Source: Horticoccus luteus
GTDB taxonomy: Bacteria > Verrucomicrobiota > Verrucomicrobiia > Opitutales > Opitutaceae
Direction: 5' to 3'
DNA: 32,000 nt
Assembly (NCBI RefSeq): GCF_019464535.1
Contig: NZ_CP080507.1
Coordinates: 3,390,001-3,422,000 of the forward strand
The notes under the pieces are model-generated. The model worked only from the letters and a program-made list of their open reading frames with translations. It was not told the origin of the DNA and ran no database searches. Of the stretch, positions 22,322-32,000 are shown one piece after another. The translations under genes and the position numbers were made by a program. How positions within the stretch are numbered: position 1 is the first letter of the stretch; each line of letters opens with the position of its first letter.

Positions 22322-23875
22322 TTATTTCCCAACCAAGTTTGCCGACGCGCCGCCGGCCAATGTCTCACTGATCGCCGTTAACAGCGCTTCAGCGGTAAAA
22401 GGCTTCGGAAGAAACGGCCCGTCGAAATGGAAATTCCCCAAACGCGAGCCGGCGTCCGGCAGGCCGCTGATTGCCAAAATTTTCGTGGCCGGACTCAACC
22501 GTTGCACGATTTGAGCCAAGGCGCACCCGTCGAGCTGGGGCATACCCAAATCGGTCACCACCAGTTTAACCTCCAAGCTGCGCGGAGCGAACAACGCCAC
22601 GGCCTCCGTGCCGTTGGCCGCGGCCAAGACCCGGTAGCCATGCCGCGTGAGCATCGCCGCCGTCACATCGCGCACGTTATCGTCGTCGTCCACCACGATG
22701 ATAAGCTCGTTCTGCCCGCGCGGCGCGGCGACCGACGTATCGCTTTGCTCTGTCAGTTCGCTGCCAGGCAAAGCCGGGAAATATACGCGAAACGTCGTGC
22801 CGCGACCCGGCTGGCTCTCCACCGTGACGATGCCGCCGTAGCTCTCCACAATCCCTCGCACGGTTGGCAGGCCCAAGCCGGTGCCGCGCCCTTCGGGCTT
22901 CGTGGTAAAAAACGGTTCCCATATCCGGCCGACCAGTTCCGGTGGGATGCCGGTGCCACTGTCAACCACCTCAAACACCAGATACGCGCCCATGCGGGTT
23001 CCGCGAATCGCGGCCGCGCTCATCTCATCCAGACGCTTATTCTGGGCGCGCACAACGAGCGTCCCGCCAGCGGGCATCGCATCGCGCGCGTTCACGCACA
23101 AATTAAGCAGCACTTGATGAAGCTGAGTGGGATTAATCTTCAGCGGCCAAAGATCGTTATCCGTCTGGTCTTCGATCCGGATGGCACTCGGGAAAGTCTG
23201 GCGCATCACGGCCAGCAGATCGCGTAAGAGGTGTCGCGGCTGCACCAAGTGCGGCTCTCCGGTCACCCCTTGAGCAAAACCGATGATTTGGCGCACCAAT
23301 CCAGCGCCACGCTCCACGCTGCGTTCGACATTCGCCAAGATCATTTCCTGCGTGGCATCGTGCACTTTTCCGCGCAGCAGCGGCACCGCGATCAGGATGG
23401 GTGCCAGGACGTTGTTAAAGTCGTGCGCAATACCCGCCGCCAGCATCCCGATATTTTCCAACCGCTGCACCCGTAACAATTGCTCTTCCGCCGCTCGCCG
23501 TTCCCGCACCTGCTTGGCGTTCTCGAGCGCCCGCCGGAGCGCGACGATCAACCGCTTAGGCCGATCTTTCAGCACGTAGTCCGTGGCCCCGTTGCGCATC
23601 GCCTCCACTGCCCGATCTTCGCCGATGGTGCCCGAAAAGAAGAGAAACGGCATGTCGGGGCACAAATTATGCGCCATCTCCAACGCCTCCAACCCGTTGA
23701 ACTGCACCAGATTGAAGTCCGACAAAACGGCGTCATAGCCGCCTGCCTCAAGCTCTGTTTCAAAGGCGTCGCGCGTATCCACCACCTGCACCGCACATTC
23801 GGGCCATTCGGTTCGTAATTGTTCCTGCGTCAATTCCGCGTCGCAGGCATCGTCCTCTAAATAAAGCAATCTCAT
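22322..23875 (-). CDS. Soluble hybrid histidine kinase, REC-HisKA-HATPase-REC
   Basis: Track ORF 22322..23932. The N-terminal receiver begins MRLLYLEDD, with acceptor context VLSDFNL and later YVLKD. H-box: GMLAAGIAHDFNNVL. N-box: LLNLCVNARDAM. G-boxes: DSGTGIP and GRGTGLGL. The C-terminal receiver reads IIVVDDDDNVR...VVTDLGMP...LAISG...LPKPF. No TM segment or other sensor domain is present. The track start at 23932 is a TTG. The ATG at 23873-23875 sits directly in front of the receiver fold, so I prefer it. Confidence 0.85.
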   Translation of the reverse strand: MRLLYLEDDACDAELTQEQLRTEWPECAVQVVDTRDAFETELEAGGYDAVLSDFNLVQFNGLEALEMAHNLCPDMPFLFFSGTIGEDRAVEAMRNGATDYVLKDRPKRLIVALRRALENAKQVRERRAAEEQLLRVQRLENIGMLAAGIAHDFNNVLAPILIAVPLLRGKVHDATQEMILANVERSVERGAGLVRQIIGFAQGVTGEPHLVQPRHLLRDLLAVMRQTFPSAIRIEDQTDNDLWPLKINPTQLHQVLLNLCVNARDAMPAGGTLVVRAQNKRLDEMSAAAIRGTRMGAYLVFEVVDSGTGIPPELVGRIWEPFFTTKPEGRGTGLGLPTVRGIVESYGGIVTVESQPGRGTTFRVYFPALPGSELTEQSDTSVAAPRGQNELIIVVDDDDNVRDVTAAMLTRHGYRVLAAANGTEAVALFAPRSLEVKLVVTDLGMPQLDGCALAQIVQRLSPATKILAISGLPDAGSRLGNFHFDGPFLPKPFTAEALLTAISETLAGGASANLVGK

Positions 23876-24120
23876 GGGGAAAATCTCGTCTAAGAGCATC
23901 TTGCCAAAAGGAAGCGTCCGACGTGCGGCCAAGGTAGCAGCGTTTCCCGTGTCTGCACCTCAAAAGATTTCCAGCCGCTCAAAATATTACTCGGTATTTG
24001 GATAGGGTTTTACCCGATGCCAAAGTCGGGGATTGTGCCCCGGGCCGCACTTGGCACGGGACCGCTTCCACGGCAATTACCTCGGCTGCGGTGTCGGTCC
24101 ACGCCCGCGTTTCCAGCTAC
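23876..24120. promoter_or_regulatory. Divergent intergenic region between the hybrid kinase and the sensor-kinase operon
   Basis: Non-coding if the preferred starts (23875 and 24121) are correct. It contains an AT-rich patch, caaaagatttccagccgctcaaaatattactcggtatttggatagggtttta, at about 23961-24012. No promoter elements could be assigned confidently. Confidence 0.35.
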
Positions 24121-25566
24121 ATGCGTTTTCAGGATATCCCCATCCGGCGGAAACTCATGACCATGCTCCTGCTCACCAGCGGGGCGGTCGTGCTCCTGAC
24201 CTGCGCCTCCTACTTGGGCTATGAATTAGTGACGTTTCGGCGAACCTCTGTCCAACAGCTCGACACGCTCGGCGAAATCATCGCCAGCAACAGCACCGCC
24301 GCGCTCGCCTTCGATGCGCCCGACGACGCGCAACAAATCCTTTCCGCCTTGGCCGCCGACCGCCAAATCGTTGCGGCGGTGCTTTATCGGGCCGACGGCA
24401 CGGTTTTCGCCCTTTTTCCGGCCGACTTATCCGCTTCCGACTATCCCCTTCATCCCGGGCCCTCCGGCCACAATTTCGAGCACAACGGACTTGCCGCCTT
24501 CCACACTGTCACCCGTGACGGAAAGCCGCTCGGCACGCTCTACCTTCGCACGAGCGGCAACGCCCTTTTTGAACGCCTCCGGCTTTTCGGCGGCTTCCTT
24601 ATCGTCGTGATCGCGGCCGCCGGCGCGCTCGTCTTTGTGTTATCACGCTCCCTGCAACGCCAAATCTCCGGTCCCATTCTGGCCTTGGCCGGCACGGCCC
24701 GTGCCATGGCCGAAAGTCAGGATTATGCCGGCCGGGCCACGAAGCTGGGCAACGACGAGATCGGCGTCCTCACCGATGCCTTCAACGCCATGGTCGGCCG
24801 TCTCGCCAACGCCAACCACGACTTGGAACTTCGCGTGCGCGACCGCACCGCTGCCCTCGAGGAGGCCAACCACGAGCTCGAAGCGTTTTCCTACTCCGTT
24901 TCCCACGATTTGCGGGCGCCACTGCGCCACATCGGCGGCTTTGCCACGATGCTGCGGCAACACACCGAGCCCGTCCTCGACGAGAAAGGCCGCCGGTTTA
25001 TCACGGTCATTCAACAGTCCACCGCGCGCATGGCCCAGTTGATTGATGACCTCCTCGCGTTTTCCAAGCACGGCCGCGCCGAACTTCAGCACGAACCCGT
25101 TGATCTCGCCGACCTGATCGAACAGATAAAAGTCGGCTTCCAAGGCGAACTCGAGGATCGGCACGTGGAGTGGAATGTCGCGCCGCTCCCCACCGTCCGC
25201 GGCGACACCTCGCTGCTCCGCCAGGTATTTACGAATCTCCTCGGCAACGCCGTCAAATACACCCGCCGCCAGCCCATCGCCCGCATCGAAATCGGGACGG
25301 TCACCCCTCCGAACGGCGAAGCGGTCGTCTTCGTGCGCGATAACGGCGCCGGCTTCGACATGCAGTATGTCGACAAGCTCTTTGGCGTCTTCCAACGCCT
25401 GCATCACGACACCGAATTTGAAGGCACCGGCGTCGGCCTCGCCACCGTCCGCCGCATCGTCCAACGCCACGGCGGCCGCGTTTGGGCCGAAGGCCAGCCG
25501 GGCGTGGGGGCCGTTTTCTACGTCGCTCTTCCCACAAACATTCCCTCCACCGCCCCACTTTCATGA
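24121..25566 (+). CDS. Membrane sensor histidine kinase: TM, ~150-aa periplasmic domain, TM, HAMP, HisKA, HATPase
   Basis: Track ORF 23998..25566; the preferred start is the ATG at 24121 (MRFQDIPIRRKLMTMLLLTSGAVVLL...). TM1 is LMTMLLLTSGAVVLLTCASYLGY and TM2 is FGGFLIVVIAAAGALVFVL. A HAMP-like segment follows TM2 (ISGPILALAGTARAMAE...DEIGVLTDAFNAMVGRL). H-box: FSYSVSHDLRAPLRHI. N-box: NLLGNAVKY. G1: RDNGAGF. G2: GTGVGLATV. The periplasmic segment, ..ASNSTAALAFDAPDDAQQILSALAADRQIVAAVLYRADGTVFALFP.., recalls YfiN/DgcN-type (CHASE8-like) sensors. Confidence 0.85.
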   Translation: MRFQDIPIRRKLMTMLLLTSGAVVLLTCASYLGYELVTFRRTSVQQLDTLGEIIASNSTAALAFDAPDDAQQILSALAADRQIVAAVLYRADGTVFALFPADLSASDYPLHPGPSGHNFEHNGLAAFHTVTRDGKPLGTLYLRTSGNALFERLRLFGGFLIVVIAAAGALVFVLSRSLQRQISGPILALAGTARAMAESQDYAGRATKLGNDEIGVLTDAFNAMVGRLANANHDLELRVRDRTAALEEANHELEAFSYSVSHDLRAPLRHIGGFATMLRQHTEPVLDEKGRRFITVIQQSTARMAQLIDDLLAFSKHGRAELQHEPVDLADLIEQIKVGFQGELEDRHVEWNVAPLPTVRGDTSLLRQVFTNLLGNAVKYTRRQPIARIEIGTVTPPNGEAVVFVRDNGAGFDMQYVDKLFGVFQRLHHDTEFEGTGVGLATVRRIVQRHGGRVWAEGQPGVGAVFYVALPTNIPSTAPLS

Positions 25567-26027
25567 GCAAACCCAAAAACATTCTCCTCGCCGAAGACAG
25601 CCCGCTCGACGTCGAGATGACGGTGACTGCGCTGAGTGACCACAATCTCGCCAATACCATCGTCGTCGTGCGCGATGGCGCGGAAGCCCTCGACTACCTT
25701 TACCGCCGCGGCGCCTTCGCTGCGCGCACCGACGGCGATCCCGCCTTGGTCCTCCTCGACATCAAGATGCCTCGCGTCGACGGCTTGGAAGTCCTCCGTC
25801 AGATCAAGGGCGACGATTCCCTGCGCACGATTCCGGTCGTCATGCTCACTTCGTCCCGTGAAGAGAGCGATCTCGCCCGCAGTTACCGCTTGGGCATCAA
25901 CGCCTACGTCGTAAAGCCCGTCGACTTTCCGGCGTTCATGGACGCGTTGAAGCAAGTCGGCGTTTTTTGGACCGTGCACAACGAACTCCCGCCTTCCTCC
26001 ACGGCGCCCGCGCCCGTCTTGTCGTGA
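25563..26027 (+). CDS. Single-domain (CheY/Rcp1-like) response regulator with no output domain
   Basis: Within track ORF 25482..26027; the preferred start is ATG 25563 (MSKPKNILLAEDSPLDVEM...). That ATG overlaps the kinase stop as ATGA (25563-25566). Acceptor context is LVLLDIKMP, followed by VVMLTSS and AYVVKP. The C-terminal ...FWTVHNELPP tail is typical of Rcp1-type regulators. Confidence 0.85.
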   Translation: MSKPKNILLAEDSPLDVEMTVTALSDHNLANTIVVVRDGAEALDYLYRRGAFAARTDGDPALVLLDIKMPRVDGLEVLRQIKGDDSLRTIPVVMLTSSREESDLARSYRLGINAYVVKPVDFPAFMDALKQVGVFWTVHNELPPSSTAPAPVLS

Positions 26028-27940
26028 AACGCCTCCCTTTCTTGCGCCTCGCTGTCTGCTTGGCCGCCCTTCCCGCGGGCGTGCTCGCCGAAGATGCCAC
26101 CGCGCCTTCAACCGATCTCTCGAGCCTGAAGCAACTTTCCCTCGAAGGACTGATGAACCTCGAGGTCTCGACCGTCTCCCGCAAAGACGAACGCTGGTGG
26201 ACCGCACCGAGCGGCATCGACGTCATCACGAGCGAAGATATTCGCCGCTCAGGTGCCATGAATCTACCCGACGCGCTGCGACTCGGCACCGGCGTTCACG
26301 TCGGCCAATCCAGTGCGCGCAGTTGGGCGATCAGCATTCGCGGCATGAACGTCCTCGCCGCCAACAAAATCTCCGTCGCGATGGATGGCCGCAGTCTTTT
26401 CACGCCGTTTTATTCGGGCGTCGACTGGGCGTCCAAAGACACGTTGCTCGAAGACATTGATCGCATCGAAGTCGTGCGCGGGCCGGTCGGCGCGCTCTGG
26501 GGCGCTTACGCCGTCAACGGCTTCATTCAAATCCTCACCAAGCCCGCTTGGGACACCCAAGGCTGGCTCGCCAGCGCGGGCACCGGCACCGAAGACCCGC
26601 TCTTCGTGTCGTTCCGCTACGGTGGCAAGGTCAACGACACCACCTTCTACCGCGTTTACGCCAAATACTTCCAGACTGACTGGACCTACAACGCCGCCGG
26701 CCAGCGCACCAATCCCGCGACCGATTTCTTTCAAACCGGATTCCGTCTGGATGCTCTCCGCGCCAGCGACACGACCTTTACGATCCAAGGCGACTACTAC
26801 ACCAACCAAGATCTTCCCCTCGACCACCTCCAAGCCGGGCTCGACGGCTTTAACCTCCTCGGTCGCTGGCGCCGCAACTTTTCGAGCGATGCGAGCCTCG
26901 AGATTCAATCTTACGTCGACCACACCTACTGGTTGATTCCCTCTCAGTTTGAGGAGCGCCGCACCACCGGGTCTGCTTCCGTGCAATATCGTAACGCCAT
27001 CGGCCGCCAGGATATCGTCGTCGGCTTCGATGGCTCCCTCTCACGCGACCACATCGGCAACATCGGCATCGCTCAACTGATTCCGCCCGAACGCACGATT
27101 CACAACGCGGGCCTCTACTTGGAAGACGGCATTCACCTCACGCCGACCGCCACCGTCACCCTCGGCGTAAAGGGCGAACACAACTCGTTTTCCAGCTTCG
27201 AATACGAACCGACCCTCCGCTACGCGTGGACGCCGACCGCCCAAACCACCGTATGGGCCGCCCTCTCGCGCTCCGTCCGCACCCCCGTCCGTATCGACGA
27301 CGATCTTGTCATCCAAGTCCCTGGCACGACGGTCTTCGCCGCCAACGACGACTTCCGCACCGAAGACGCCCTCGCTTACGAAATCGGCCTCCGGCATCAA
27401 CCCGTCTCGACGTTCACCTTCGACGTCTCCGCCTTTGTCTACCGCTACGACAACATCCGCAGCACCGAACCCGCCGGCTCCACGCCTCTGCCCCTCACGT
27501 TTAAGAACAAACTCAACGCCACGTCCGCGGGCGGCGAGGTGACGCTGATGTATCAACCTCTCGCCCAACTCTTCTTCAAGGCCAGCTACCGTTACCTCGA
27601 TCTGGATTTCACGCGGGATCCCGGCAGCCAGGACAACTCCCACGGCAGCTCCGAGGGCAACGACCCGAAGCACGTCGCCAACCTCAACGCCCACCTCACC
27701 CTGTCCTCCGGCTGGGAAATCGACGGCTTTCTCCGCTACGTCAGCGCCCTGCCCAATCCCGCCCTGCCCGGCTACACCGATTTCGATCTCCGCTTGGGCT
27801 GGCATCCTACCAGCAATTGGGAAATCTCCCTTCTTGGCCGCAATCTCCTCCACCGCCAGCATGCCGAGTTCATCACGACGAACAGCCTCAACGAGCAGGT
27901 TCATCGCAGCATCACGCTGAAAAGCACATGGCGTTACTGA
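26024..27940 (+). CDS. TonB-dependent outer-membrane receptor (plug plus beta-barrel), small type
   Basis: Track ORF 25967..27940. Plug motifs: IDVITSEDIRRSGAMNLPDALRLGTGVHV, IRGMN and IDRIEVVRGPVGALWGAYAVNGFIQILTK. The remainder is long with alternating beta-strand character and ends ...ITLKSTWRY (terminal aromatic residue). The in-frame GTG at 26024 gives the signal peptide (M)KRLPFLRLAVCLAALPAGVLA/EDA and overlaps the regulator stop as GTGA. The ATG at 25967 is the alternative start. Confidence 0.85.
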   Translation: MKRLPFLRLAVCLAALPAGVLAEDATAPSTDLSSLKQLSLEGLMNLEVSTVSRKDERWWTAPSGIDVITSEDIRRSGAMNLPDALRLGTGVHVGQSSARSWAISIRGMNVLAANKISVAMDGRSLFTPFYSGVDWASKDTLLEDIDRIEVVRGPVGALWGAYAVNGFIQILTKPAWDTQGWLASAGTGTEDPLFVSFRYGGKVNDTTFYRVYAKYFQTDWTYNAAGQRTNPATDFFQTGFRLDALRASDTTFTIQGDYYTNQDLPLDHLQAGLDGFNLLGRWRRNFSSDASLEIQSYVDHTYWLIPSQFEERRTTGSASVQYRNAIGRQDIVVGFDGSLSRDHIGNIGIAQLIPPERTIHNAGLYLEDGIHLTPTATVTLGVKGEHNSFSSFEYEPTLRYAWTPTAQTTVWAALSRSVRTPVRIDDDLVIQVPGTTVFAANDDFRTEDALAYEIGLRHQPVSTFTFDVSAFVYRYDNIRSTEPAGSTPLPLTFKNKLNATSAGGEVTLMYQPLAQLFFKASYRYLDLDFTRDPGSQDNSHGSSEGNDPKHVANLNAHLTLSSGWEIDGFLRYVSALPNPALPGYTDFDLRLGWHPTSNWEISLLGRNLLHRQHAEFITTNSLNEQVHRSITLKSTWRY

Positions 27941-28503
27941 ACTCCACTTCCACCCGCGTGCAGCGCCATCTGCACCGCCTGCTCTGCGTCTTCGTCGTCG
28001 CCTGCACGTTTGCCGCGCCCGTCGGTGTCGCCGAACCCGTCGCGCGCCAACTCGATATCGAAGCCGTCTTCCTTCTCAACCTCACCCGTTTCATCCGCTG
28101 GCCGGATAAATCGTTTCCCGCTGACGACGCCCCTCTCTACATCGGCCTCCTTCCCACCGACCCGATCGCCACCGTGCTCAACGAAGCCGCCGGCGGGGAA
28201 TCCTCCGGCTCGCATCCGATCAAGCTCCGCTGGATTCGCAACGCCGCCGATGCCAACGACTGCCATCTCGTCTTCTTCTCGAAGTCCACGCTGACCGAAT
28301 CCGCCCAACTGGTCGCCGGCTTGCGCGACAAACCCGTGCTGCTCGTGAGCGATTCCGACGGCTTTCTCCGCCTCGGCGGCCAGATCCTCCTCTACAAGCG
28401 CGGCACCCAGGTGCGCCTCCGCATCGACCTCGCCAACCTCCGCCGCTCCAATCTCACCGCGAGCACCTCCCTCCTGCGCGTCGCCGATCTGGTCAACAAG
28501 TGA
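27928..28503 (+). CDS. YfiR/DUF4154-family periplasmic protein
   Basis: Within track ORF 27817..28503; the ATG at 27928 overlaps the receptor gene by 13 nt. The signal peptide reads ...LHRLLCVFVVACTFAAPVGVA. Family hallmarks recognised by eye are EAVFLLNLTRFIRWP, CHLVFFSKS and PVLLVSDSDGFLRLGGQILLYKRGTQVRLRIDLANLRRSNLTASTSLLRVA. Confidence 0.75.
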   Translation: MALLNSTSTRVQRHLHRLLCVFVVACTFAAPVGVAEPVARQLDIEAVFLLNLTRFIRWPDKSFPADDAPLYIGLLPTDPIATVLNEAAGGESSGSHPIKLRWIRNAADANDCHLVFFSKSTLTESAQLVAGLRDKPVLLVSDSDGFLRLGGQILLYKRGTQVRLRIDLANLRRSNLTASTSLLRVADLVNK

Positions 28504-28511
28504 CGTCGCAT

Positions 28512-29291
28512 TCAAGCCGGCTCGCGATTGAGGCGCACCGCCTCGCGCAAACCCGTCAACACCAGTTCCGGCACCAGTTCGTCGAAGAGTCCCTCGCCTT
28601 CGAACATCCGCGCAAAACCGCCTGTGCCCAGCACATGCGGCCGCTCGCCGCCAAAATTCTCCCCGCTGATCTCCTGCACCAGCCGCGCCACCGCCCCCGC
28701 GTGCCCGTGAAACAGCCCTGATTGGATCGACTCCGCCGTCGTGCGCCCCAACGCCATCGGCGGCCGCATGATCTCCACCCGCGGCAGTTTCGCCGTGTGA
28801 TTCGCCAGCGTTTCCGCCGAAATCCCCACGCCCGGCAAAATCGCGCCGCCCAGGTAATCCGCCTCCGCCGTGATCGCCTCGATCGTCGTCGCCGTGCCAA
28901 AATCCACCACGATCAAGTTGCGCCGTGGATGCAGATGCACCGCCGCAATTGCGCTCGCAATCCGGTCTGCGCCGACTTCGTGCGGATTGCGATAACGCAC
29001 CCGCAGCCCCGTCTTCACACCCGCCTGCAACACAAACGGTTCGCACCGAAAATACTTCACCGCCGCCGCGCGCAACGCATGCAACGCCGCCGGCACCACC
29101 GAGCAAATCGCCACCGTATCGATTTCCGCCGGCTCCACCCCGTTGGCCCGCAACACCGCGTTGAAAAACACCCCGAGTTCATCCGCCGATCCCGCCGGAT
29201 GCGTCGACTTCCGAAACTGCGCGCGCAACTCATCCCCGGCAAATACGCCGCCGTGGATGTTCGAATTTCCCGTGTCGAGACAGAGCAGCAT
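28512..29291 (-). CDS. coaX: Type III pantothenate kinase
   Basis: The track ORF starts MLLCLDTGNSNIHGGVF. It contains GADRIASAIAA, LIVVDFGTATT and GGAILPG/ESIQSGL, the ASKHA-fold motifs of CoaX. Confidence 0.9.
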   Translation of the reverse strand: MLLCLDTGNSNIHGGVFAGDELRAQFRKSTHPAGSADELGVFFNAVLRANGVEPAEIDTVAICSVVPAALHALRAAAVKYFRCEPFVLQAGVKTGLRVRYRNPHEVGADRIASAIAAVHLHPRRNLIVVDFGTATTIEAITAEADYLGGAILPGVGISAETLANHTAKLPRVEIMRPPMALGRTTAESIQSGLFHGHAGAVARLVQEISGENFGGERPHVLGTGGFARMFEGEGLFDELVPELVLTGLREAVRLNREPA

Positions 29292-29296
29292 GGCTT

Positions 29297-30520
29297 TTAG
29301 GAAACCTGAGTTTGCGCCACCAGTTGCTCCAGTCGATCCGCGAGTTCCCCGCGCGTGGCGCAGGCGATCGCCGGTTCCCCTCCCCGCCGATGGATCGCCG
29401 CCGGGAACGCGTCCTGGCCGCTGGTGCGCGTCGCGAGATCATTGTGCACGACGAAGTCCGCGTCCGCCTCCGCCACCAACGCTGCCACCGCCCGCCCCGC
29501 CGCCGCTTCGCTCGCATGATCTGTGAGCTTGAACGCCACCACCTTCACCGCCGCATTGCGCGAACGACTCCGCAGCGTCGCCACAATCTTCGCCTGCGGC
29601 TTCAACCGCAAAACGGGCGACGCTCGCGAATCCAGCTTTTGCCCCACCGCGACTTCCTTCCCGTCCACCTCCACGCCCGCGACCGCAAAATCGCTCACCG
29701 CCGCCGCGTGGATCACCACATCGACCCGCTCGCCGCCCAACACCTCCGTGAGTGCCCGATCCAAGTCCGCGTGCGTCTGGAAAATCTCCTCCTGCACCGA
29801 GGGCACCGCCACCGCCGTCGCCGCGCGCAACAACAACACTTCGTGCCCGCAACGCGCGAAATGCCGTGCGATCAACGCCCCCGTAAAACCCGTGCTCGTG
29901 TTCGACAGCACGCGCACGCCGTCGATCGGCTCGGCCGTCCCGCCGCTCGTGATCACCACGCGCAAACTCCGCCCCGCCGGCCGCGTCAGCATCTGCTCCA
30001 CCGCCAGCACGATGTCGCCCGCCTCCGCGAGCCGTCCCTCGCCCGTCTCACCGCACGCCGTCCGCCCGTGCCCAACCGGCAGGCAACGCACGCCCCACTC
30101 GCGTAAACGCTCCACCGCCGCCCGCGTGGCCGGGTGTCGCCACATCTCCGGATTCATCGCCGGCGCCAGCAGCCACGGCGTCGTCCGTTCGCTCGCCAAA
30201 AACAACGCCCCCGGCAAATCGTCCGCCAGCCCCGCCGCCAAGCGGTTCAACTGATTCGCCGTCGCCGGACACACCAGCACGAGATCCGCCCAGCGCGTGA
30301 GATGCACGTGCTCCATCGCGCGCCCCGCGGTCCACAACTCCGTCGCCACCGGCTGCCCCGTCAGCCCCTCCAGCGTCGCCGCGCCCACGAACCGCAACGC
30401 CGACGGCGTGGCCACCGCGCGTACCGTGTGCCCGGCTTGCACGAGCCGCGACAACGCCTCGCATGCTTTGTAGGCCGAAATCGACCCCGAGAGAATGAAC
30501 AGGATTTTAGAGGGGGACAT
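29297..30520 (-). CDS. coaBC: Bifunctional phosphopantothenoylcysteine decarboxylase / phosphopantothenate-cysteine ligase
   Basis: Track ORF 29297..30598; the preferred ATG at 30518-30520 gives MSPSKILFILSGSISAYKA... (flavoprotein domain). Other motifs: CPATANQLNRLAAGLADD, APAMNPEMW, and the ligase domain VVITSGGTAEPIDGVRVLSNTSTGFTG. The stop lies 5 nt before the coaX start. Confidence 0.9.
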   Translation of the reverse strand: MSPSKILFILSGSISAYKACEALSRLVQAGHTVRAVATPSALRFVGAATLEGLTGQPVATELWTAGRAMEHVHLTRWADLVLVCPATANQLNRLAAGLADDLPGALFLASERTTPWLLAPAMNPEMWRHPATRAAVERLREWGVRCLPVGHGRTACGETGEGRLAEAGDIVLAVEQMLTRPAGRSLRVVITSGGTAEPIDGVRVLSNTSTGFTGALIARHFARCGHEVLLLRAATAVAVPSVQEEIFQTHADLDRALTEVLGGERVDVVIHAAAVSDFAVAGVEVDGKEVAVGQKLDSRASPVLRLKPQAKIVATLRSRSRNAAVKVVAFKLTDHASEAAAGRAVAALVAEADADFVVHNDLATRTSGQDAFPAAIHRRGGEPAIACATRGELADRLEQLVAQTQVS

Positions 30521-31265
30521 TGTCGATGAGTCGTGTGCCTTCGATGCGGATTGCGCCGAGCCGGACACCCGCCCGGTCGTCCACGTAATCCACGCCAAAT
30601 CCCGCCGCCGTCAGGCGCTGCGCCGCCGTCGCGGCATCCGGCGACGTCCGCAAAATCTCCGAAAACGCCCCCGCCGCCGCACGCGCCCCGGCCGACAGGC
30701 GCGCATTGCGCGAACTCAGCGCCAGCCCGTTGGCCTCGCGCACCGTCGCACACGCCACGATCTCGACCGGCAGAAAAAACGCCGCCGTCATGTCCTTCAC
30801 CAACTGCAACTGCTGCCAGTCCTTCTCGCCGAAATACGCCCGCCGCGGTTGCACGAGGTGCAGCAACCGCAGCACCACCGTCAGCACGCCATCGAAATGC
30901 CCCGGCCGGTGCGCTCCTTCCAGCTCTTGCGCCAGCTTCGTCTCCGTGACGCGAAAACGATACTCATCCGGATAAATCTCCGCCGGCGTCGGCGCGAACA
31001 CGTAGTCCGCCAGCCCCGCCGCCAGCGCCAAATCCTCCGGCAGCGTGCGCGGATACACCGCGAGATCCCGCGGATCGTTAAACTGCGTGGGGTTCACGAA
31101 AATGCTCAACACGGTTACGTCGCTTTCCACTCGCGCCCGTTCGAGCAACGCGCGGTGTCCCGCGTGCAGATTGCCCATCGTCGGCACGAAACCGATGCCC
31201 CGCGGCGACGCCGGTAACTCCGCCCGCACGCGACGCCATTCAGCGATGGAAGTGATCGTGCGCAT
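30507..31265 (-). CDS. panC: Pantoate-beta-alanine ligase (pantothenate synthetase)
   Basis: Track ORF 30507..31517; the preferred ATG at 31263-31265 gives MRTITSIAEWRRV...IGFVPTMGNLHAGHRALL. It also contains VLSIFVNPTQF, HRPGHFDGV and YFGEKDWQQ. Its 3' end overlaps the coaBC start by 14 nt. Its ATG shares one base with the panB stop (TGATG). Confidence 0.9.
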   Translation of the reverse strand: MRTITSIAEWRRVRAELPASPRGIGFVPTMGNLHAGHRALLERARVESDVTVLSIFVNPTQFNDPRDLAVYPRTLPEDLALAAGLADYVFAPTPAEIYPDEYRFRVTETKLAQELEGAHRPGHFDGVLTVVLRLLHLVQPRRAYFGEKDWQQLQLVKDMTAAFFLPVEIVACATVREANGLALSSRNARLSAGARAAAGAFSEILRTSPDAATAAQRLTAAGFGVDYVDDRAGVRLGAIRIEGTRLIDNVPL

Positions 31266-32000
31266 CAGGCCGGAGTTTCTTCCGCCCCCGGAAACGCACC
31301 CGTGCGCACCGCCCGCACGTAGGCGTTGAGTGCATCCTTCGTCAGCGCGTGACCATCGGCAAACGCCCGCGCAAACGACGGCCGAAACGCCGCGTCGAGC
31401 CCGAGCAAATCCGTCCACACGAGCACCTGTCCGTCCGTGCCCTTTCCCGCGCCAATCCCGATCGTCGGAATCGTCCGCTCCTTCGAAATCCGCCGGGCGA
31501 GCGCCGACGGCACGCATTCCAACACCACGCCAAAAGCGCCCGCTGCTTCCAGCGCGCCCGCCTCCGCGCGAATCCGCGCCGCCGCCTTTACCTCGCGTCC
31601 CTGCACCCGGTGTCCGAGTTGGTGATACGATTGGGGCGTCAACCCCACGTGCCCCATTACCGGCACGCCGCTCTCGACCAGATGTTCAATGATCTCTCCG
31701 TGCCCCGCCACGCCCTCGATTTTTACCGCGTTCGCGCCCGCCCGAAGCAGGACGCCCGCCGCCTCCACCGCCGCCCCCCGCTCGCCGCGCACGCTGAGAA
31801 ACGGCATGTCGGCGATCACCAGCATCTCCGGCGCGCCGCGCCGCACCGCGGCCGTGTGCAAGGCCATCATTTCCACCGTCGCGTGAATCGTCGAGGCATG
31901 CCCATGCACCACCATCGCGACCGAGTCGCCCACCAAGATGGCATCGACGTCCGCCTCCGCCGCCGTCCGCGCCGCGAGCACATCATAGGCCGTCACGAGC
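31265..32000 (-). CDS. panB: 3-methyl-2-oxobutanoate hydroxymethyltransferase; N-terminus beyond the right edge
   Basis: The track ORF 31265..31996 starts at an internal GTG, and the frame stays open to base 32000 (..LVTAYDVLAA..). Motifs: ILVGDSVAMVVHGH, VIADMPF, VKIEG, GHVGLTPQ, LECVP and IGIGAG. Confidence 0.9.
   Translation of the reverse strand, partial: LVTAYDVLAARTAAEADVDAILVGDSVAMVVHGHASTIHATVEMMALHTAAVRRGAPEMLVIADMPFLSVRGERGAAVEAAGVLLRAGANAVKIEGVAGHGEIIEHLVESGVPVMGHVGLTPQSYHQLGHRVQGREVKAAARIRAEAGALEAAGAFGVVLECVPSALARRISKERTIPTIGIGAGKGTDGQVLVWTDLLGLDAAFRPSFARAFADGHALTKDALNAYVRAVRTGAFPGAEETPA

Follow-up and report, generated by a model that had tools for sequence, protein, structure and literature searches.

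The YfiBNR system (TpbB/AwsXRO/HmsCDE) of Pseudomonas, Escherichia coli and Yersinia provides the main point of comparison for the locus examined here, a set of four plus-strand genes in a 32,000-nt stretch of the Horticoccus luteus genome (contig NZ_CP080507.1, positions 3,390,001 to 3,422,000; hereafter the window) that encodes a membrane sensor histidine kinase, a stand-alone receiver, a TonB-dependent receptor and a secreted YfiR-like protein. The two systems share a periplasmic DUF4154 protein with the YfiR fold, a sensor partner in which a CHASE8 domain between two transmembrane (TM) segments is followed by HAMP, a conserved AAVVF-type motif and a conserved hydrophobic patch, and a third component in the outer membrane. 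They differ in their output, which is a GGDEF cyclase in YfiBNR and a histidine kinase with a predicted phosphorelay in the window, and in the outer-membrane component, which is an OmpA/Pal-like lipoprotein (YfiB) in the former and a 22-strand-type TonB-dependent receptor in the latter. We propose that the receptor and the YfiR-like protein probably control the kinase, with the receptor as a candidate outer-membrane input.

YfiR has two conserved cysteine pairs, Cys71-Cys110 and Cys145-Cys152 (PMC4655355). The surface formed by its helix 1 and C-terminal helices binds YfiB in P. aeruginosa crystals and has been proposed to bind YfiN, so that there is a precedent for sequestration of the protein by an outer-membrane partner through the same conserved surface (PMC4655355). 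Binding of YfiR was mapped by Malone et al. to a five-residue AAVVF motif on YfiN (PMC3375315), and the 'PAS' domain of YfiN has since been reclassified as CHASE8 (PMC8085984). Distant Yfi pairs that lack YfiB and have sensor-kinase outputs were also reported in silico (Malone et al., 2012, PLoS Pathog; PMC3375315), and YfiR-YfiN[PAS/HAMP] examples from Opitutus terrae, Acidobacteria, Geobacter and Rhodothermus were aligned there and found to conserve the binding residues; TonB-dependent receptors are nowhere mentioned in that paper, nor are the 13-nt overlap, the receiver or the hybrid kinase that we describe below.

Association with a receptor is captured in NCBIfam (release 20) by the families NF053590, NF053591 and NF053592, which have the same three-gene association and are the best matches of all three corresponding window proteins. 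Of these three proteins, only the kinase passes its family cutoff, through its sensor region, and the gene order differs as well, being kinase-receiver-receptor-YfiR-like in the window and usually receptor-YfiR-like-kinase-receiver. In our literature searches we found no paper or experimental work on the receptor/YfiR-like/kinase triad, nor one that connects TonB-dependent receptors with YfiR, DUF4154 or CHASE8. Systems of this kind have been recognised before, the YfiR-kinase pairing in the 2012 literature and the receptor triad in NCBIfam; the window copy is a new member and, judging from its sequence, a somewhat divergent and order-permuted one. Our analysis adds the extent of the receptor coupling and its near-invariance, selection on the 13-nt overlap, a conserved fifth gene, the lack of a transport or metabolic partner, and the residue-level conservation of the YfiR-YfiN contact.

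Results

Four overlapping genes form the locus

The locus and its divergent neighbor comprise the following features:

24121-25566, plus strand: membrane sensor histidine kinase (Pfam, NCBIfam NF053592, AlphaFold2 (AF2) model).
25563-26027, plus strand: stand-alone CheY-like receiver without an output domain (Pfam Response_reg, E = 1.1e-19).
26024-27940, plus strand: TonB-dependent receptor, 638 aa (Pfam Plug and barrel, NCBIfam NF053590).
27928-28503, plus strand: secreted YfiR-like (DUF4154) periplasmic protein, 191 aa (Pfam, NCBIfam NF053591, AF2, Foldseek).
27928-27940, plus strand: 13-nt receptor/YfiR-like overlap, ATGGCGTTACTGA (direct reading, survey).
22322-23932, minus strand: cytoplasmic hybrid kinase, REC-HisKA-HATPase-REC (REC, receiver domain), exact start uncertain (Pfam).
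23933-24120, no strand: 188-bp divergent intergenic region, presumed promoter region of both transcription units (gene layout).

A sequence-only reading of this stretch had described four plus-strand genes that overlap at every junction, and direct reading bore this out. The kinase stop TGA (25564-25566) overlaps the receiver ATG at 25563 (ATGA, 25563-25566), the receiver stop (26025-26027) overlaps the receptor GTG at 26024 (GTGA, 26024-26027), and the ATG of the YfiR-like gene at 27928 lies 13 nt inside the receptor gene, which stops at 27938-27940 (overlap 27928-27940). The domains assigned in that reading, namely a CHASE8/HAMP kinase, a receiver, a TonB-dependent receptor and a DUF4154 protein, were all recovered by profile hidden Markov models (HMMs). 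Its claim of tight gene coupling likewise gained support, both from the overlaps themselves and from the recurrence of the 13-nt overlap in relatives; 4-nt overlaps are commonplace, and a recurring 13-nt overlap is beyond chance. A promoter scan found no sigma-70-like match in 23933-24120, and promoter and terminator scans inside the operon gave no signals above those of shuffled controls.

The receptor and YfiR-like genes share a selected 13-nt overlap

To assemble related loci, we used, besides contigs that carry close homologues of the YfiR-like protein, a metagenome profile search with a 25-sequence alignment, which gave 80 further loci, and a profile search of genome contigs with an alignment of close homologues (a narrow pattern), which gave 2. 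After removal of two duplicates (L002 of L001, and L004 of L003), 86 loci were counted, a few of which are still near-identical, and their open reading frames (ORFs) were classified by iterated HMM searches seeded from the window proteins. The YfiR-like proteins of the 80 metagenome loci share 30-54% identity with the window protein.

The sequence-only reading had proposed a check on neighborhood co-occurrence, and we found the receptor gene directly upstream of the YfiR-like gene in 77 of the 78 loci with upstream sequence. The same 13-nt overlap joins the two genes in 66 of these 77 loci, which share only 30-55% protein identity, with ATG as the YfiR-like start codon at 61 of the 66 junctions, GTG at 4 and TTG at 1; the window has this arrangement, and so does the Sphingobium indicum plasmid pSRL1. 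At the window junction, the YfiR-like start M-A-L-L is embedded in the last receptor codons, W-R-Y-stop, and in general a receptor end of the form [W/C]-[R/Q/H]-[F/Y]-stop overlaps the frame M-[A/P/S]-[L/V/I]-L. The alternation of W and C follows from codon 2 of the YfiR-like gene, where GCN or GGN gives TGG and CCN or TCN gives TGC or TGT. The ATG takes its A from the third, wobble position of the receptor codon that precedes W/C, a codon whose encoded residue is variable (T, E, A, S, I, V, Q, L, R). This base was A in 62 of 74 non-redundant junctions, compared with a background of 12.4% A at the third positions of the same genes (binomial ~3e-44, a value that ignores relatedness), and this bias indicates that the embedded ATG is under selection. 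The selected overlap supports the earlier suggestion that co-translation is enforced, and widens its reach to the sampled lineages.

One locus (L018:4094-7989) has two tandem receptors before the YfiR-like gene, the second of which starts 13 nt inside the first (ATGCCGGTTTTAA, encoding MPVLK), so the duplication copied the overlap junction. An N-terminus of the form 'MA[LIV]L', present in 57 of 149 database representatives, was considered as a marker of receptor coupling and was not used, since it is confounded by the gene caller's choice of start.

The module recurs without transport or metabolic partners

Close homologues of the YfiR-like protein showed the same four-gene arrangement on contigs with unrelated flanks. 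The usual order across the survey was receptor, YfiR-like gene, kinase (75 loci), while the window and six relatives had the order kinase-(REC)-receptor-YfiR-like instead; one of the surveyed loci, from an Opitutus metagenome-assembled genome (L006), reads kinase-receptor-YfiR-like without a receiver. A CHASE8 gene was adjacent wherever there was enough sequence, and its readable output was a kinase in all cases except L007. This locus is also the sole exception among the 78 noted above, with its DUF4154 gene paired with one for a CHASE8-HAMP-GGDEF-EAL protein and no receptor. The module was seen in Opitutus, in Sphingobium and on contigs whose kinases carry Gemmatimonadales labels; on pSRL1 of Sphingobium indicum the genes are annotated as 'TonB-dependent receptor', 'YfiR family protein' and a CHASE8 hybrid kinase. 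All of the YfiR-like proteins that were compared with NCBIfam (65 of 65) matched NF053591 best.

Clustering of the neighboring ORFs in the surveyed loci revealed no further conserved family, whether inner-membrane transporter, binding protein, enzyme or sigma/anti-sigma factor, and this lack favors a role of the receptor in signalling over one in nutrition. ExbD and ExbB genes were identified by Pfam just downstream of the module, on the opposite strand, in L003 (9437-10443, minus), and same-sized ORFs occupy the equivalent position in L006 (9346-10352, minus), where the likeness is one of size and position alone. No ExbBD or TonB genes were visible in the part of the window outside a giant ORF that is described below.

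Two apparent fusions were set aside. In L037 (860-3943; contig WNFR01064993.1), a complete YfiR-like protein is joined in frame to a CHASE8 kinase that lacks its N-terminus and first transmembrane segment (TM1), and the resulting topology is sensible (signal peptide, YfiR-like, CHASE8, second transmembrane segment (TM2), HAMP, kinase, REC). This Rosetta-stone fusion was not counted as evidence, as it is found on one contig and could be either a genuine fusion or an artefact of deletion or assembly. A second candidate, P0170 (428 aa; DUF4154, CHASE8, HAMP and HisKA), was rejected as a functional fusion: it joins only the first ~95 residues of the YfiR-like domain to a kinase whose N-terminus is intact, TM1 included, and has the look of a deletion or chimeric assembly.

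The YfiR-like protein keeps the fold and hydrophobic patch of YfiR

The translation of 27928-28503, for which the sequence-only reading had staked its proposal on a DUF4154 match, matched that family ('YfiR/HmsC-like') with E = 6.8e-35, scoring 120.7 bits against a gathering threshold of 24.9 over profile positions 3-142 of 143. The fold agreed with this assignment: the AF2 model has a mean predicted local distance difference test (pLDDT) value of 90, and its top 15 Foldseek matches in the PDB were all P. aeruginosa YfiR chains, each with probability 1.0 and a template-modelling score of 0.64-0.73 on the target. The fold is also related to single-domain substrate-binding proteins and to the halves of type I binding proteins (Foldseek; also PMC4655355). 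By far the best NCBIfam match was NF053591 ('TOL_0243 family YfiR-like periplasmic protein'), aligned over 3-149 of its 150 positions with 114.5 bits, under the cutoff of 125, and on sequence grounds we regard the window protein as a divergent TOL_0243 relative just under threshold. The model for true YfiR (NF053586, 'regulatory sequestration protein YfiR') gave 33.8 bits, well short of its cutoff of 85.

The residues that form the hydrophobic patch and pocket of YfiR (F151, I160, F162, I169, V180, L181 and L183) align without gaps to I153, V162, L164, L171, L182, L183 and V185 of the window protein, so that every position stays hydrophobic, and conservation within the family peaks in helix 1 with its loop and in the C-terminal helices. 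The two cysteine pairs are not retained; C110 alone has an equivalent (C112), and the positions of C71, C145 and C152 are occupied by other residues. These disulfide cysteines underlie the proposed redox-sensor role of YfiR and, judging from the alignment, are absent here. The operon-encoded partners are a histidine kinase and a TonB-dependent receptor. With no GGDEF partner of the YfiN type, no OmpA/Pal-like lipoprotein of the YfiB type and no YfiR disulfide cysteines, the window system is not a member of YfiBNR.

A profile search of 1.84 billion database representatives, clustered at 50% identity, found 23,707 DUF4154 clusters at E<=1e-3 and 1,011 at E<=1e-30, the latter number indicating that the YfiR-like subfamily is large. 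Several representatives (P0022-P0024, P0030, P0031, P0038, P0120 and P0144; 340-546 aa) contain two or three tandem DUF4154 domains, which would fit the dimeric state reported for YfiR.

The kinase carries a CHASE8 domain with a YfiN-type binding motif

The kinase consists of TM1, a periplasmic CHASE8 domain (Pfam, E = 1.1e-14), TM2, HAMP, HisKA (with the H-box SHDLRAPL) and HATPase_c, the last three also matched by Pfam. A periplasmic domain followed by HAMP had been anticipated in the sequence-only reading, and is present; its size is not the ~150 aa suggested there, since in the AF2 model, which is reasonably confident (pLDDT 80.5), it spans ~118 aa (residues ~36-153). The kinase passes the cutoff of NF053592 ('sensor histidine kinase, YfiR-like protein-associated') with 216.3 bits against 194, aligned over residues 7-228, and the beginning of this match at residue 7 makes a start at ATG 24121 plausible. 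The exact 481-aa protein from this start was not found in the public protein collection, and a different start may therefore have been annotated; ATG 24121 is the probable start, give or take a few codons.

The AAVVF motif of YfiN aligns with AALAF, residues 60-64 of the window kinase, which in the AF2 model sits at the end of a long helix continuing from TM1. Its first alanine (A60) and its phenylalanine (F64) were invariant in all nine aligned sequences, including E. coli DgcN and the L007 GGDEF-EAL protein. The CHASE8-HAMP kinase of the window, encoded upstream and not downstream of the YfiR-like gene, carries the A-x-x-x-F (AAVVF-type) motif. We also compared the E. coli yfiR-dgcN-yfiB locus, in which DgcN/YfiN carries CHASE8 as well (1.3e-33). 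The homology argument made earlier, that the YfiR-like protein acts on the kinase CHASE8 domain, is therefore strengthened by the shared CHASE8, the AALAF motif and the hydrophobic patch, and such action appears likely on these sequence features.

In a fold search, the predicted CHASE8 fold matched the extracellular PAS domain of WalK, the periplasmic domain of the LapD ortholog CdgS9, and CitA/DctB sensors. Outside the cytoplasm, the sensor domains of WalK and LapD have partner proteins that regulate them or bind to them (YycH/YycI and LapG, respectively). The likeness of the window domain to these is a structural resemblance alone (template-modelling score about 0.57 on the target), and the partners are unrelated.

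The receptor is conserved at its N-terminus and lacks an STN domain

The receptor comprises a signal peptide, a conserved N-terminal segment, a Plug domain (from residue 61) and a TonB_dep_Rec_b-barrel. Plug and barrel were the only Pfam matches, and no N-terminal STN signalling domain was found among them. An alignment of 37 relatives showed strong N-terminal conservation of the segment LKxLSLExLMxLEVSTVSR, which contains the TonB-box region; the later half of the segment lines up with the corresponding region of CirA and PfeA, where the matches of the receptor to these two PDB sequences begin. Over 2-604 of 604 positions, the receptor scored 601.6 bits against NF053590 ('TOL_0244 family'), just under the cutoff of 645, and the next NCBIfam family scored 100 bits. 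The exact 638-aa protein with the GTG 26024 start is present in the public protein collection.

In FecA-FecR-FecI, the genetic partner of the outer-membrane TonB-dependent receptor is a signalling protein of the inner membrane and not a set of uptake genes. The window receptor is, by analogy, linked in the same way. FecA-type transducers differ in having an STN domain and an anti-sigma/ECF sigma partner; as the window has neither the domain nor a sigma/anti-sigma pair, its system is not a FecA-type transducer, and the signal would instead pass through a soluble periplasmic protein into a phosphorelay.

A receiver-fronted hybrid kinase is the likely next step of a proposed relay

The sequence-only reading had held that the only cognate regulator lacks an output domain and that the downstream target is not evident. 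The first part stands in that Response_reg is the sole Pfam domain of the receiver, and the final output does appear to lie outside the locus. The receiver is not the only partner nearby, since the divergent hybrid kinase gene (22322-23932, minus) is a conserved member of the module, and with it a downstream receiver-fronted protein is visible. A divergent hybrid kinase gene is found likewise in the closest relatives (L001, L008 and L024), and in 24 of the 35 related loci with enough sequence the kinase gene has a small REC-only gene behind it. Of the 17 canonical-order loci that extend far enough, 9 have a receiver-fronted kinase (REC-[PAS/GAF]-HisKA-HATPase-[REC]) after the REC gene, and it shares its architecture with the divergent gene of the window. 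The translations show the catalytic His and Asp motifs, and the hybrid kinase is likely the next step of the phosphorelay. In two loci (L028:3373-5784, minus, and L079:14067-16526, plus) a REC-GGDEF-EAL protein adjoins the module, which hints that the relay can feed cyclic di-GMP turnover in some lineages.

Other features of the window

On the minus strand, positions 2-22060 form a single ORF of at least 7,353 codons that runs off the left end of the window. Its product has almost no Pfam signal (one weak RTX repeat match, E 2.6e-4), and its gene has its 5′ end immediately behind the hybrid kinase gene, which runs in the same orientation. Co-transcription of the two is thus conceivable; relatives do not share this adjacency. 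The plus-strand 'ORFs' at 8.5-21.7 kb, which lack Pfam matches, are antisense shadows of this gene, and the ORF-poor stretch at 15-22 kb, considered as a ribosomal RNA operon, was rejected as such because it too is antisense to the giant gene. Rfam and transfer RNA scans of the window gave no matches.

The end of the operon at 28503 adjoins, 8 nt away, the convergent stop of a coenzyme A/pantothenate cluster (28512-31996, minus), and no terminator-like hairpin was found between the convergent YfiR-like and coaX genes (28503-28512). The cluster was identified by Pfam as follows:

28512-29291, minus strand: coaX.
29297-30598, minus strand: coaBC.
30507-31517, minus strand: panC.
31265-31996, minus strand: panB.

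The listed ORFs overlap by ~250 nt in the case of panC and panB and by ~90 nt in that of panC and coaBC, which probably means that the actual start codons lie more downstream. Between 27001 and 32000, guanine-cytosine (GC) skew is strongly negative (-0.2 to -0.28) and GC content is 65-69%, compared with a skew near zero and about 58-62% GC in most of the window.

Discussion

The analogy with YfiBNR drawn in the sequence-only reading is a sound one. On balance, we lean towards a trans-envelope signalling module in which the YfiR-like protein controls the kinase, the receptor serves as the outer-membrane input, and the signal passes into a relay of several kinases. In a first step, the secreted YfiR-like protein would bind the periplasmic CHASE8 domain of the kinase through its hydrophobic patch and the AALAF motif, and would set kinase activity as YfiR does for the diguanylate cyclase YfiN. 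This step is well supported by homology, given the YfiR fold, the conserved patch, the shared CHASE8 and the motif. In a second step, the receptor, which we infer to be made in fixed proportion to the YfiR-like protein by way of the 13-nt translational overlap, would control how much of that protein is free for the kinase; once ligand-bound, it may capture the YfiR-like protein on its periplasmic face or N-terminal segment, in a role like that of YfiB. The argument for the receptor as input is drawn from the near-obligate, selected coupling, the absence of uptake or catabolic partners, and the precedent of YfiR sequestration. In a third step, suggested by the conserved gene content, the kinase would phosphorylate the stand-alone receiver, the N-terminal receiver of the hybrid kinase, or both, thereby starting a multi-kinase relay with its final output outside the locus.

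Several observations weigh against this reading. Binding of the YfiR-like protein to CHASE8 or to the receptor is argued from homology and gene context, and the receptor itself, which lacks STN and has an ordinary-looking plug and TonB box, shows nothing in its sequence that marks it as a transducer. L007 does without a receptor, so the receptor is not obligatory for the core, and as loci were chosen by similarity, the figure of 77 of 78 describes this subfamily and not DUF4154 as a whole. The missing disulfide cysteines imply that regulation differs in detail from that of YfiR. In addition, the window departs from the common gene order with its kinase-REC-receptor-YfiR-like arrangement, and by sequence score its receptor and YfiR-like protein both fall just under the NCBIfam cutoffs.

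A more specific form of the signalling model can be put forward tentatively. Here, TOL_0244-type receptors would be a new class of TonB-dependent transducer that works with neither an STN domain nor an anti-sigma factor, and in which ligand binding or energisation by TonB exposes the N-terminal segment; this would take hold of the co-translated YfiR-like protein by strand addition, in the manner of YfiB, freeing the CHASE8 kinase for the multi-kinase phosphorelay; the 13-nt overlap would set a 1:1 ratio of receptor to adaptor. That the conserved N-terminal segment docks the YfiR-like protein is speculation.

It is also conceivable, though we think it unlikely, that the receptor is an ordinary TonB-powered transporter and that the YfiR-like protein or CHASE8 senses an imported small molecule, with no contact between receptor and YfiR-like protein, much as SusC-type import feeds the periplasmic sensors of hybrid two-component systems. 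The receptor does resemble a normal transporter with a conserved TonB-box region, the YfiR-like fold, half of a periplasmic binding protein, is akin to substrate-binding proteins (PMC4655355), and the ExbB-ExbD genes beside the module in L003, with the ORFs of like size and position in L006, also speak for this reading. The surface that the family conserves is, however, the one with which YfiR binds proteins, the module has no conserved inner-membrane uptake or catabolic genes beside it, and a stoichiometric complex is the easier explanation of the selected 13-nt coupling.

We consider it improbable that the receptor is regulated cargo, with the YfiR-like protein and kinase forming a self-contained envelope sensor comparable to YfiNR pairs that lack YfiB. 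Many two-component systems adjoin transporters that they regulate, which counts for such an arrangement, as does L007, where DUF4154 and CHASE8-GGDEF-EAL occur with no receptor; moreover, YfiR-YfiN cores work without YfiB in many species (PMC3375315). Against this, the conserved module contains no DNA-binding response regulator, and the receptor stays directly upstream of the YfiR-like gene even where the kinase has switched sides, as in the window. The receptor/YfiR-like junction is itself under selection, and the tandem receptor duplication in L018 kept it.

That the YfiR-like protein mainly regulates the receptor, by plug gating or competition for TonB, while the kinase senses something else through CHASE8, would fit the receptor-to-YfiR-like linkage as the tightest and most conserved one and the conservation of the segment before the TonB box, but is very improbable given the conservation of both the YfiN-type binding motif and the YfiR patch, and given the CHASE8 protein that neighbors the module wherever enough sequence is available.

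For the window itself, the value of the analysis lies mainly in correct annotation. The YfiR-like subfamily spans Verrucomicrobiota and Alphaproteobacteria and is abundant in soil metagenomes, and we found no experimental study of it; the AALAF motif, the hydrophobic patch, the receptor N-terminal segment, the 13-nt overlap and the receiver-fronted hybrid kinase offer handles for experiments. If the receptor is indeed the input, the module would represent a third route by which an outer-membrane event reaches the cytoplasm of Gram-negative bacteria, through a soluble adaptor and a phosphorelay, alongside FecA-type sigma signalling and import-then-sense systems.

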